DNA of 64,000 nucleotides from assembly GCF_057098645.1 (NCBI RefSeq), contig NZ_CM169472.1; one strand, written 5' to 3'. Below are positions 5,897-9,455 of the stretch, in pieces. A model generated the notes under the pieces. The model saw nothing but the letters and a program-made list of their open reading frames with translations. It searched no databases and was not told the DNA's origin. Numbering within the stretch: position 1 is the first letter of the stretch; each line of letters opens with the position of its first letter. Made by a program: the position numbers and the translations under genes.

Positions 5897-6132
5897 GATA
5901 GTGCCCTTTTTCTGAGATGGAAAAAGGGTGTCATTCAAAATCGGCATACCTTCCTTTAATGTATTTATTTTCCCAATAAATATATTGAGATTTACCTCAT
6001 AATTACTTCCTAAAGTGTAATATTTTATTTTTTAATATATACGCCTACAATTTCCTGGAGTAAATAAATAAAAATTAACAAGCATAATAGTGCCATTGAT
6101 AAAATAGCATGCCATAAAAGGACTTTTCAGGG

Positions 6133-6878
6133 ATGAGTAATATTGTTTATCTGACAGTAACGGGAGAACAACAAGGAAGCATCTCCGCAGGTTGTGGGAC
6201 TACTTAATCTATAGGTAATCGCTGGCAGAGCGGGCATGAGAATGAAATATTTACATTCTCACTCGCAAATAGCATTACTAATACGGGGCTTGGTTCACAG
6301 TTACAGGGTATAACATTTTGTAAATTAATTGATAAAAGCACTCCATTACTTATTAATTCCATTAACAATAATGAGCAATTATTTATGGAATTTGACTTTT
6401 ATAGAATCAATAGATTTGGCAGATGGGAAAAGTATTATTATATACAACTAAGAGGCGCTTTTTTATCGGCTATTCATCATCAGATCATTGAAAATCAACT
6501 GGATACAGAAACAATAACTGTTAGTTATGAATTTATCCTCTGTCAACATCTTATCGCAAATACCGAGTTCAGCTATTTGGTTGGCACTCCCTGAAAATTA
6601 TAACCGTTTGTTTTTACCAAATTCAAAAAACCAAACAAATAATGGTTTCAAAACGTTAAACAGCAAAGCTGTTGGCAGGCTACTTGCTGCTGGTGGCGTA
6701 TACAATGGGAACATTGAAGGTTTCAGAGATACTGCGGAAAAACTGGGTGGAGATGCAATCAAAGGCTATGATCAAATACTAAATGAAAAAACAGCGGGCA
6801 TAGCGATAGCAACAGCATCTATTCTTTTAACAAAGCGTTCTAAAGTTGATACATATACAGAAATAAATAGTTACTTAG
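6133..6878 (+). pseudogene. yhhZ: Hcp-domain-fused toxin gene, 5' part (Hcp-ET type T6SS effector); in-frame TAA at 6205-6207 and a frameshift in the 6527-6594 overlap
   Basis: ATG 6133 encodes MSNIVYLTVTGEQQGSISAGCGTT then stop; same frame reopens 6208..6594 (SIGNRWQSGHENEIFTFSLANSITNTGLGSQLQGITFCKLIDK...), then shifts to the 6527..6925 frame and runs into the IS5 end; AT-rich; positional equivalent of K-12 yhhZ (symbol assigned by position, from memory). Confidence 0.6.
6875..6878. repeat. Target-site duplication TTAG (left copy) of the IS5 insertion
   Basis: TTAG immediately precedes the IS left terminus GGAAGGTGCGAATAAGC at 6879; identical TTAG follows the right terminus at 8075. Confidence 0.7.
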
Positions 6879-8074
6879 GGAAGGTGCGAATAAGCAGGTC
6901 ATTTCTTCCCAAGCTGACTCGTTGATTAAAATTTCGCGGATCTGGGCCGATTTTTTTCCCGCAAACACATCGAATCAGCCTATTTAGGCTATTTTTTCCA
7001 CCATTTCTGGCGTTATTTCCGGTTTTTACTGAGATCTCTCCCACTGACGTATCATTTGGTCCACCCGAAACAGGTTGGCCAGGGTGAATAACATCGCCAG
7101 TTGGTTATCGTTTTTCAGCAGCCCCTTGTATCTGGCTTTCACGAAGCCGAACTGCCGCTTGATGATGCGAAACGGGTGCTCCACCCTGGCACGGATGCTG
7201 GCTTTCATGTATTCGATGTTGATGGCCGTTTTGTTCTTGCGCGGATGCTGCTTCAAGGTTTTTACCTTGCCGGGACGCTCGGCGATCAGCCAGTCCACAT
7301 CCACCTCGGCCAGCTCCTCGCGCTGTGGCGCTCCTTGGTAGCCGGCATCGGCTGAGACAAATTGCTCCTCTCCATGAAGCAGATTACCCAGCTGATTGAG
7401 GTCATGCTCGTTGGCCGCGGTGGTGACTAGGCTGTGGGTCAGGCCACTCTTGGCATCGACACCAATGTGGGCCTTCATGCCAAAGTGCCACTGATTGCCT
7501 TTCTTGGTCTGATGCATCTCCGGATCGCGTTGCTGCTCTTTGTTCTTGGTAGAGCTGGGTGCCTCAATGATGGTGGCATCCACCAAAGTGCCTTGGGTCA
7601 TCATGACGCCTGCTTCGGCCAGCCAGCGATTGATGGTCTTGAACAATTGACGGGCCAGTTGATGCTGCTCGAGCAGGTGGCGGAAATTCATGATGGTGGT
7701 GCGATCCGGCAGGGCGCTATCCAGAGATAATCGGGCAAACAGGCGCATGGAGGCGATTTCGTACAGGGCATCTTCCATGGCACCGTCGCTCAGGTTGTAC
7801 CAATGCTGCATGCAGTGAATACGCAGCATGGTCTCCAGCGGATAGGGCCGTCGGCCATTGCCCGCCTTGGGATAAAACGGCTCGATGACAGCGGTCATAT
7901 TCTGCCATGGCAGAATCTGCTCCATGCGGGAGAGGAAAATCTCTTTTCGGGTCTGACGGCGCTTAGTGCTGAATTCACTATCGGCGAAGGTGAGTTGATG
8001 GCTCATGATGTCCCTCTGGGATGCGCTCCGGATGAATATGATGATCTCATATCAGGAACTTGTTCGCACCTTCC
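6879..8074 (-). mobile_element. IS5-family insertion sequence (about 1196 bp) with terminal inverted repeats
   Basis: Left end GGAAGGTGCGAATAAG (6879-6894), right end ...TGTTCGCACCTTCC (8061-8074) are inverse complements; contains one 326 aa DDE transposase ORF; flanked by a 4 bp TTAG direct repeat. Confidence 0.9.
7026..8006 (-). CDS. insH: IS5 transposase (InsH-like, DDE)
   Basis: 326 aa [39 protein letters not shown]... closely matching IS5 InsH as I recall it. Confidence 0.9.
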
Positions 8075-8078
8075 TTAG
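8075..8078. repeat. Target-site duplication TTAG (right copy)
   Basis: See left copy at 6875-6878. Confidence 0.7.
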
Positions 8079-8515
8079 GCAAACTTAGAGGTCAACAAAA
8101 ACTTCTTGATGGCATAGACATAATAGAAATAAAATACATTAAGAGACCTTCAAAAGACTTAGCTAACTTACGAAAGGAGTTTAACAAAACTGTAAGAAAA
8201 AATTTTCTTATCAAACTTGCAAAAACCTCCGAAGCATCTGGAAGATTCAACGCCGAAGACCTTTTAAGAATGAGAAAGGGCTATGTTCCTCTAAATTATA
8301 ATGTTCACCATAAACTATCTCTAGATGATGGTGGTACTAATGATTTCGAAAATTTAGTATTAATCGAAAACGAACCATATCATAAAGTTTTTACTAACAT
8401 GCAATCACGAATAGCTAAGGGAATATTAGTAGGTGAAAGCAAAATCACTCCCTGGGCCATTCCATCTGGCTCAATTTATCCTCCCATGAAAAATATTATG
8501 GAACCCACAAAATGA
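8075..8515 (+). pseudogene. yhhZ: Hcp-ET toxin gene, 3' part encoding an HNH-type nuclease domain
   Basis: Removing the IS and one TTAG copy joins ...SYL to GKLRGQQKLLDGIDIIEIKY... in frame; C-terminal motif NVHHKLSLDDGGTNDFENLVLIENEPYH is HNH-like; stop TGA 8513-8515 overlaps the next ATG. Confidence 0.65.
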
Positions 8516-9006
8516 TGACTAAAACCCAAATAAACAAATTAATAAAAATGATGAATGATTTAGACTATCCATTTGAAGCACCGCTCAAGGAATCATTTAT
8601 TGAAAGTATAATCCAAATAGAATTTAATTCTAATTCAACTAATTGCCTGGAGAAGTTATGTAATGAAGTTAGTATTCTTTTTAAGAATCAACCTGATTAT
8701 CTTACTTTTTTAAGAGCAATGGATGGATTCGAAGTTAATGGATTGCGATTATTTAGCCTCTCGATTCCAGAACCTTCAGTTAAAAACCTTTTTGCCGTAA
8801 ATGAATTTTATAGAAATAATGATGATTTCATAAACCCTGATCTACAAGAACGGTTAGTGATCGGGGATGATAGCATTTCAATATTTACTTATGACATTAA
8901 AAGTAACTTTTTTGAAATTAGAGATAATATTGGCACAGAAAATATATTCAGTTCGTTTAGTGATTTCTCTTCATTCTTAAACGAAATCATGGACAGTTGT
9001 TCATAA
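8512..9006 (+). CDS. Putative cognate immunity protein of the HNH toxin (164 aa, acidic)
   Basis: ATG overlaps the toxin stop (ATGA); intact ORF MMTKTQINKLIKMMNDLDYPFEAPLKESF...; AT-rich; immediately downstream and co-directional with the toxin; positional equivalent of K-12 yrhA. Confidence 0.55.
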   Translation: MMTKTQINKLIKMMNDLDYPFEAPLKESFIESIIQIEFNSNSTNCLEKLCNEVSILFKNQPDYLTFLRAMDGFEVNGLRLFSLSIPEPSVKNLFAVNEFYRNNDDFINPDLQERLVIGDDSISIFTYDIKSNFFEIRDNIGTENIFSSFSDFSSFLNEIMDSCS

Positions 9007-9455
9007 TAATCAAAAGGAAACAAAAATCATTGTAAACCATGCCATCTTTTTAGAGATTACCACCAGAAAATTCCTTGTTCGAAATTTAGCAATGCAAGCT
9101 ATGGAAAAACTTACAACGGAACTACACTCCTTAAGTGAGATGGACCGAAGACATGTAGTCTCTATTTTAGCCGAAATAGCTAATGGCTATGATGATTTTA
9201 GTGACATGTTGATTTATTTAGAATTTTACCCAAATCATAAGATTCTGATATCTTAAATAAGAAAATCCCGTTCGAAGTTCTGAAAAAGAAATCACAAAAT
9301 ATTAGCAGATACTTATTTCGTGACTATATCTTATCCGATGAACTTTTTTCAAAACCAGCATTTAATAATATCTTTGACGAAGATGAATGCACCTTTGCTC
9401 AATGTATCACACAGGAATAATAATATAACACTCAACAATAATATTTATTATAATT

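Follow-up and report, generated by a model that had tools for sequence, protein, structure and literature searches.

What kind of DNA lies between yhhY and ggt in this Escherichia coli chromosome, and which of its genes can still act? The question is raised by positions 5897-9455 of a stretch of 64,000 nucleotides from contig NZ_CM169472.1 (NCBI RefSeq assembly GCF_057098645.1), which we analyzed at full length and call the window. A megablast comparison with complete E. coli genomes gave the gene order yhhY - tssD (yhhZ) - yrhA - yrhD - yrhB - ggt, and the window DNA outside one insertion sequence (IS) is 100% identical to that of O145:H28 strains. The islet, a short AT-rich locus of the polymorphic-toxin kind without mobility genes of its own, is flanked by two convergent core genes, yhhY and ggt; it is single-copy, and its DNA is 95-100% identical across E. 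coli, with 98.7% identity between K-12 and the window. The interval is very probably the known E. coli yhhZ-yrhA-yrhD-yrhB islet, in which the Hcp-HNH toxin is dead, the yrhA immunity gene is intact, and the whole is an apparent recombinant. It is important to note that the locus has already been described in the literature and that our finding is mostly a re-discovery.

The toxin gene, tssD (yhhZ), lies on the plus strand and is broken into two parts. Its 5' part (6133-6878, codons 1-247) encodes the Hcp domain and a linker, as delimited by alignment to an intact 392-aa orthologue (L002), and its 3' part (8079-8515, codons 248-392) encodes the predicted HNH (His-Me finger) DNase domain, recognized from the same alignment and a weak match to PF01844. 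Three lesions leave the gene without an intact open reading frame (ORF): an in-frame TAA in place of codon 25 (6205-6207), a tandem duplication of TTGG that adds 4 bp and shifts the frame (6577-6584), and an IS5-family element inserted after codon 247. The stop and the duplication, both located by alignment, are common to O145:H28 genomes, whose gene is called 'frameshifted; internal stop' by RefSeq; therefore, the IS inserted into an already dead gene. When the IS, one copy of its target duplication, and the 4-bp duplication are removed conceptually, a 392-codon frame is recovered, with 373/393 positions identical to the intact protein. The N-terminal Hcp/TssD domain of the intact orthologue matches TIGR03344 (E 5.4e-34) and PF05638 (E 2.4e-11), as well as Hcp structures in the PDB, and the HH...N...H catalytic motif is retained in the 3' part of the window's gene. 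Within E. coli, the dN/dS of tssD is 0.34-1.44.

YhhZ has been classified as a His-Me finger nuclease of group 32 (PMC5714182). Hcp-ET1 has been described as an orphan Hcp-HNH DNase that is delivered by T6SS2, a type VI secretion system (T6SS), and neutralized by the downstream ETI1 (PMC6730261, PMC6099711, bioRxiv 10.1101/2024.03.05.583533). From these reviews and this preprint we infer that the two proteins are the same, because the HNH/yrhA block is single-copy, the Hcp-HNH proteins cluster with YhhZ, and a yhhZ-yrhAB island has been reported in O104:H4 (PMC3309015). Every E. coli Hcp-HNH protein falls into this cluster with at least 86% identity; the closest proteins beyond it are those of Citrobacter (73%). 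The window thus shows the same locus as the Hcp-ET1/ETI1 systems of Shiga-toxigenic and O104:H4 E. coli and the yhhZ-yrhA pair of K-12, that is, an orphan hcp-HNH gene followed by an immunity gene and placed away from any T6SS cluster; it differs from them in that its toxin has been inactivated three times, its IS5 insertion point does not occur in 5,426 complete genomes, and the C-terminus of its yrhB is frameshifted. The O104:H4 report, which presents GIST, assigns the E. coli yhhZ-yrhAB island to the 'conversion of methionine to cysteine'. This assignment seems to stem from a confusion of gene names with the unrelated yrhA/yrhB of Bacillus subtilis, the E. coli products being a toxin and two immunity proteins.

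Directly behind the toxin gene, and overlapping its stop codon with its own start, lies yrhA (8512-9006, plus strand), an intact 164-aa immunity gene of the ETI1 type. YrhA matches NCBIfam NF038335 (E 1.5e-36), which constitutes an NCBI family of its own; no Pfam family was found at E ≤0.1, SMI1_KNR4 included, and no PDB sequence match exceeded chance. Its AF2 model, calculated on 18 homologues, reached a pLDDT of 82.7 and a pTM of 0.81. In a Foldseek search of the PDB with this model, YobK (2prv) was the top match (E 7e-4, probability 1.0, TM-score 0.52-0.57), and the best-ranked entries, 2prv, 3d5p (BF1740), 6qbn, 3ffv, and 2pag, had probabilities of 0.75-1.0 and TM-scores of 0.39-0.57; the proteins concerned are YobK, BF1740, yeast Knr4, Syd, and PSPTO_5518, all of which possess the SUKH fold. 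YrhA thus models as a SUKH-fold immunity protein. It shares with SUKH (SMI1/KNR4) proteins, such as YobK of B. subtilis, the predicted fold and the place right after a nuclease toxin, and it departs from them in having no profile match to Pfam SMI1_KNR4. Among immunity families, SUKH has been reported to be the principal one that counters HNH toxins (PMC3482391). The toxin/immunity content proposed in the initial annotation is therefore borne out as an Hcp-HNH toxin followed by a SUKH-fold YrhA.

The linkage between the HNH toxin and YrhA is conserved outside E. coli. In Citrobacter youngae, a YrhA homologue with 67% identity directly follows the Hcp-HNH homologue. In Leclercia (L052:3845-5501), a DUF8093 N-terminus replaces Hcp in front of the same linker and HNH domain, which are 63% identical to residues 152-382 of YhhZ, and a YrhA homologue follows; therefore, the toxin module has been shuffled between delivery domains. 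The Leclercia DUF8093-HNH module adjoins a CdiA gene accompanied by Imm70 and Imm63 genes. The dN/dS of yrhA (0.13-0.28) indicates purifying selection. In some E. coli alleles (P0005, P0007, and P0009), deletion or read-through fuses YrhA or its N-terminus in frame with the yrhD frame.

Taken together, a working yhhZ would encode a T6SS tube protein, Hcp, joined by a linker to an HNH DNase and fired into neighboring bacteria, and the overlapping downstream yrhA would provide the SUKH-fold immunity protein that protects the producer and its kin from the DNase. The toxin gene of the strain studied here is dead: it carries the nonsense codon 25 and the 4-bp duplication, both derived from an O145:H28-like lineage, as well as a strain-specific IS5 after codon 247. 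Since yrhA is intact, the locus should be able to give immunity at most, and not to mount an attack.

How did this DNA come to lie between two core genes? In an empty-site E. coli allele (L006), yhhY and ggt are only 60 bp apart, with a hairpin within the spacer. The homology of the window to this allele stops at 5895/5896 and resumes at 9777; therefore, the inserted segment, islet and IS together, is 5897-9776, from the yhhY stop to the ggt stop, and includes yrhB. The left edge given in the initial annotation, 5897, was exact, whereas the right edge near 9455 is compositional only, and the inserted DNA ends at 9776. We also depart from the initial annotation in its view of yrhB as a flanking housekeeping gene: yrhB is absent from empty-site genomes and belongs to Pfam Imm35.

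Among 5,426 complete E. coli genomes, the empty yhhY/ggt junction is contiguous in 986, and the right AT-rich block of the islet is present in 3,826, where it is always chromosomal and normally single-copy. A different cargo, with DUF4225 and of the O157:H7 type, occupies the site in 343 genomes. It shares with the window only the terminal 36 bp, the hairpin; this terminator hairpin at the ggt end (9746-9769, minus strand) is common to the HNH-type and the O157 DUF4225-type alleles. The DUF4225 cargo itself (L009:4990-6844, O157:H7 Z910), at the place that corresponds to 5897-9740 of the window, consists of a 303-aa protein and about 730 bp without an annotated gene, with a GC content of 0.32.

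Outside E. coli, we scanned species-representative genomes with YhhY and obtained 41 loci, 37 of which come from other species and keep ggt. In these 37, which include Escherichia albertii, E. whittamii, Escherichia sp. E1V33, two Citrobacter, Enterobacter, Klebsiella, Lelliottia, and Pluralibacter, ggt lies within about 100 bp of yhhY, with the exception of Franconibacter (about 2.9 kb) and a few others (up to about 400 bp), and no trace of YhhZ, YrhA, YrhD, or YrhB was found in any of the 37 yhhY-ggt loci. The islet is nevertheless not strictly confined to E. coli, as Citrobacter alleles at the same site were found. The Citrobacter islets (L055:2626-6143 in C. youngae and L059:3802-6785 in C. 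portucalensis) carry two extra genes that are not in E. coli: one of 294 aa, whose N-terminus resembles a signal peptide and for which Pfam gave no match, and one of 83-87 aa, with a faint EarA-like/winged-helix match. Neither flanking direct repeats nor an integrase ORF was found at the islet, and its sole transposase is that of the secondary IS5 element.

Synonymous divergence within E. coli also sets the islet apart from its flank. The dS of tssD and yrhA is 0.01-0.08, against 0.23-0.77 for the adjacent yhhY, which fits a spread of the islet by recombination more recent than the divergence of its flank. For yhhY itself (5408-5896), the allele of the window is 100% identical to O145 only, about 94.9% identical to most genomes, and 81.9% identical to one, with a dN/dS of 0.02-0.18; this divergence suggests imported alleles or recombination tracts beside the islet. 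The claim that this is horizontally acquired DNA is upheld in the sense of an insertion relative to the ancestral yhhY/ggt junction, given its atypical composition, the empty sites, and the alternative cargo.

The composition was computed from the letters of the sequence. The GC content is 0.528 in the window and 0.393 in the interval 5897-9455 overall, and the interval divides into a left block (5897-6878, GC 0.337), a central block (6879-8074, GC 0.536), and a right block (8075-9455, GC 0.309). Its middle is GC-normal because an IS5-family element occupies a third of it. Without this block, the remaining 2,359 bp have a GC content of 0.321, lower than that of every 2,359-bp stretch in the window (mean 0.529, sd 0.045, minimum 0.396). 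Only five of the 500-bp segments of the 64 kb with GC below 0.40 fall outside the AT-rich interval, and runs of at least six A/T occur at 3.4 per kb within it versus 1.0 per kb elsewhere. The GC content at third codon positions (GC3) is 0.27 in tssD, 0.26 in yrhA, and 0.31 in yrhD, compared with 0.64 +/- 0.06 (minimum 0.47) in 30 long ORFs of the window; yrhB, with a GC of 0.47 and a GC3 of 0.40, also falls under the GC3 of every long ORF. The AT-rich leader and promoter region upstream of tssD (5897-6132, plus strand) has a GC content of 0.29. The initial description of an AT-rich island with long A/T runs, unlike its flanks, is therefore correct: the GC content is extreme, the runs are about three times denser, and both AT-rich blocks lie far below the range of the flanking genes. 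The interval is not AT-rich throughout: at 6879-8074 lies an IS5-family element of core-like GC that had gone unreported. Elsewhere in the window, the GC content dips at approximately 22900-23300 and 39500-39900 (0.35-0.39 in 500-bp segments), and the ORF at 40423-41481 (352 aa, GC 0.46) has a GC3 of 0.47, the lowest of the long ORFs outside the islet.

The gene yrhB (9456-9794, plus strand) raises the question of where the islet's components come from. YrhB matches Pfam Imm35 (PF15567) over residues 5-83 with an E-value of 6.7e-23 and 81.1 bits, against a cut-off of 27.5, and PDB sequence and profile searches gave chance matches only. In the window, one base has been lost, leaving a run of nine A at 9709-9717, so that the last nine residues are changed and the ORF runs into ggt; the Imm35 domain is left untouched. 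The gene is carried by about 70% of E. coli, with a dN/dS of about 0.1-0.5. Imm35 has been described as a partner of the papain-fold toxin Tox-PL1 (PMC3482391); since the window contains no Tox-PL1 toxin, its yrhB is an orphan.

Its probable partner can be recognized at the same site in other genomes. Several Hcp-ET homologues share their N-terminal 58-64% with YhhZ and end in PF15644 ('Papain fold toxin 1, glutamine deamidase'). Two such Hcp-PF15644 toxins are located at yhhY/ggt, one on a metagenomic contig (L058, Escherichia-like) and the other in Citrobacter portucalensis (L059-L061), and in both cases an Imm35 gene follows directly, its start overlapping the toxin stop, with 83% and 72% identity to YrhB, respectively. 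The DNA homology between the window and the metagenomic contig ends at 6793, within the linker at about codon 219 of tssD, and resumes at 9452, four bases 5' of the yrhB start. The ancestor allele would thus have consisted of an Hcp-Tox-PL1 toxin (a papain-fold glutamine deamidase) followed by Imm35. In a swap, its toxin C-terminal domain would have given way to a cassette made up of the HNH domain, the genes yrhA and yrhD, and codons 1-54 of a further small gene; yrhB (Imm35) would have stayed behind as an orphan immunity gene. From the sequence comparison, the present common E. coli allele is probably a recombinant derived from the Tox-PL1/Imm35 allele. The arrangement resembles the orphan arrays of CdiA-CT/CdiI and Rhs-CT/RhsI (Zhang et al. 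2012, PMC3482391) in its conserved N-terminal delivery domain, its breakpoint in a conserved linker, its swappable toxin-immunity cassettes, and its left-over immunity gene. Unlike those arrays, the islet has Hcp as its delivery domain, its displaced module keeps the immunity gene only, with no orphan toxin fragment, and it occupies a fixed site between two core genes that is shared across genera.

The segment 9007-9455, between yrhA and yrhB, contains only short broken ORFs, as the initial annotation had stated and our reading of the ORFs confirms. It begins with yrhD, an ORF of 51 aa annotated by RefSeq (9101-9256, plus strand), whose frame is open from 9008. Word-index and HMMER searches with the 141-aa conceptual translation of 9008-9420 recovered near-identical E. 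coli fragments and one distant match of 79 aa, from a contig of only 327 bp; this single distant homologue of yrhD (41% identity, E 8e-4, HMMER, 1.84 billion representatives) has an alignment that begins before the annotated start, in a stretch that offers no start codon in E. coli. BLASTP of the same 141-aa translation against YrhA gave no similarity. The second half of the segment is an unannotated gene relic (9256-9417, plus strand), consisting of the first 54 codons of a gene whose ATG has become AAT. Its gap-free alignment with a C. youngae protein of 85 aa covers residues 1-54 of that protein (22/54 identical; 41.5% identity over 53 aa), the gene of which lies directly after the yrhA homologue. 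When the 85-aa protein was searched by tblastn against the 7.3 Gb 'plasmids' collection, it recovered only the relic, unannotated, in three E. coli chromosomes (E 1e-6 to 1e-5). The relic ends at codon 54 in all seven E. coli alleles examined and has an extra internal stop in two of them. Pfam gave nothing for yrhD, the relic, or the 85-aa protein; Rfam gave for segment 9007-9455 one sub-threshold snoRNA match, taken as chance; and the AF2 model of the 85-aa protein had a pLDDT of 40.5 and no usable fold. The suggestion that this segment holds decayed orphan immunity cassettes is thus right in that a decayed gene relic is present; the immunity part of the suggestion is unproven, and no immunity family was detected there. 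By its sequence assignment, the true orphan immunity gene of the islet is the predicted Imm35 gene yrhB, and not this segment.

The IS5-family element (IS5/ISKpn26-like) occupies 1,196 bp on the minus strand (6879-8074). It encodes a 326-aa DDE transposase (7026-8006, minus strand; DDE_Tnp_1, PF01609, E 1.6e-35) and is bounded by 16-bp terminal inverted repeats (GGAAGGTGCGAATAAG and GGAAGGTGCGAACAAG) and by a TTAG target duplication (6875-6878 and 8075-8078), which fits the 4-bp YTAR of the IS5 family. A 100-bp probe of its left junction had no contiguous match in the 5,426 complete genomes, and the best matches were IS5 copies elsewhere in tssD. Other E. coli islets have been struck as well, repeatedly and in independent events: by IS1E in yrhA of K-12, by IS5 at other tssD positions, by ISKpn26 between yrhD and yrhB, and by an IS1-mediated deletion that removes the entire islet and trims yhhY. 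The genomes concerned are L002, L003, K-12, and strains 980-2, AST46, B771, and PSS-12. At the right IS end, an ORF of 151 aa (8060-8515) has a TTG start inside the element and spans the complete HNH domain; if transcribed, it would give a free-standing nuclease fragment just upstream of yrhA.

Several points weigh against the interpretation given so far. The HNH domain matches PF01844 with E-values of only 0.0017 in the window and 0.005 in the intact orthologue, both under the gathering score, and the equation of YhhZ with Hcp-ET1 was drawn from a preprint and reviews that summarize Ma et al. 2017 and from single-copy status. The SUKH assignment of YrhA comes from a predicted model with a TM-score of about 0.5 and no Pfam SMI1_KNR4 match. 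Because tssD is untranslated, yrhA may be poorly expressed through polarity. The presence of a homologous islet at the same site in C. youngae and C. portucalensis means that acquisition by E. coli is not the sole possible history. Lastly, the DNA of the Tox-PL1 C-terminal domain occurs in none of the 5,426 complete E. coli genomes; therefore, our view of which way the cassette moved, and from which donor, is an inference.

These last two points each lead to a different history. The islet might be ancestral to Escherichia and Citrobacter and have been inherited vertically with many losses, instead of being horizontally acquired. The two Citrobacter islets speak for such an origin, as they occupy the exact yhhY/ggt site and their Hcp-ET and YrhA proteins have 69-72% and 67% amino acid identity, respectively. 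We nonetheless regard it as improbable: E. albertii, E. whittamii, Escherichia sp. E1V33, two other Citrobacter species, Enterobacter, Klebsiella, Lelliottia, and Pluralibacter have a short conserved hairpin spacer with no trace of the islet, the GC3 of 0.26 has not shifted toward the host value, the dS of the islet within E. coli is 3- to 20-fold under that of the flanking yhhY, and three different cargos use the site. About equally improbable, in our judgment, is a reversed order of events in which the HNH-type islet, yrhB included, is the original, yrhB never belonged to an E. coli Tox-PL1 module, and the Hcp-Tox-PL1/Imm35 allele is a later derivative. The absence of the Tox-PL1 C-terminal domain from complete E. 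coli genomes would agree with this order, as would the fact that the sole Escherichia-like example is one metagenomic contig. What tells against it is that in two genera Imm35 comes directly behind the Tox-PL1 toxin, its start overlapping the toxin stop, together with its reported partnership with Tox-PL1 (PMC3482391); moreover, every lineage has the small gene truncated at codon 54, beside yrhB, as expected of a recombination joint, and a Citrobacter HNH allele exists without Imm35. The derivation of the common E. coli allele from a Tox-PL1/Imm35 ancestor thus remains our preferred reading.

Two further alternatives concern single parts of the islet and would grant them a present function. 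In one of them, segment 9007-9455 would not be decayed at all: yrhD would encode a genuine small protein, or the segment would serve yrhB as a regulatory leader. In its favor, RefSeq annotates yrhD, whose ORF is unbroken in the window, in K-12, and in the B1/A lineages; there is the one distant 79-aa homologue; and upstream, at 8919-8948, there is an RpoD promoter published from in-vitro work, TAGAGA-18-TATATT (PMC3946193). We consider this unlikely, given that stops or frameshifts interrupt yrhD in four of the seven E. coli lineages examined, that no other part of the islet is as poorly conserved as this segment (92-98% identity), which matches neither Pfam nor Rfam, that the homologue aligns 5' of the annotated start, at a place lacking a start codon in E. 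coli, and that the second half is a truncated, start-less relic. A still lower probability, very low in our estimation, goes to an adaptive IS5 insertion, which would relieve H-NS silencing or polarity and thereby raise yrhA expression, or would permit a free HNH fragment to be made from 8060-8515. IS5 activates H-NS-silenced operons such as bgl, and the TTG-start ORF at the right IS end does cover the whole HNH domain; against this, the two inactivating lesions of the toxin gene predate the insertion, and IS strikes in the islet are recurrent and scattered, a pattern that agrees with relaxed selection or with a bias toward AT-rich targets.

The initial annotation had also linked the AT-rich DNA to H-NS, and binding has indeed been published for the 98.7%-identical DNA of K-12. 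Two of the 78 'promoter islands' of K-12, which are associated with foreign genes, lie inside yhhZ and yrhA and are bound by H-NS in the Kahramanoglou and Oshima ChIP data sets (PMC3661553), and an HNS mark has been placed beside the yrhD promoter (PMC3946193), which is conserved in the window. By analogy with the K-12 orthologue, the islet DNA in this strain may be bound by H-NS as well. The yhhZ and yrhA islands thus belong among the H-NS-bound promoter islands of foreign DNA, with binding known from K-12; unlike these islands, the islet of the window gave no excess of promoter-like sites in a simple sigma-70 consensus scan (10 sites versus 11.7 expected from shuffles).

For annotation, the value of these results is that the GC-normal middle of the interval is an IS, that the toxin gene is a pseudogene three times over, and that yrhB still belongs to the inserted DNA. 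To the published locus, the comparison adds three points: the toxin gene has been inactivated three times, yhhY/ggt exists in four states, and yrhB can be given a specific and testable role as an orphan Imm35 gene. At this fixed chromosomal site, a single species shows an empty state alongside three or more different AT-rich cargos. Tentatively, and with somewhat more doubt than assurance, we propose that yhhY/ggt is a site of cassette exchange across genera, that YrhB could act as a functional orphan immunity protein against the Hcp-Tox-PL1 (Hcp-ET5-type) toxins of other Enterobacteriaceae, and that the relic at 9256-9417 may mark the recombination joint from which the present E. coli allele arose. 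YrhB was still listed as 'uncharacterized' in 2025 (PMC12506659); with this proposal, yrhB, an old y-gene of K-12, would gain a concrete and testable role as the orphan Imm35 immunity gene left behind by a toxin-domain swap.

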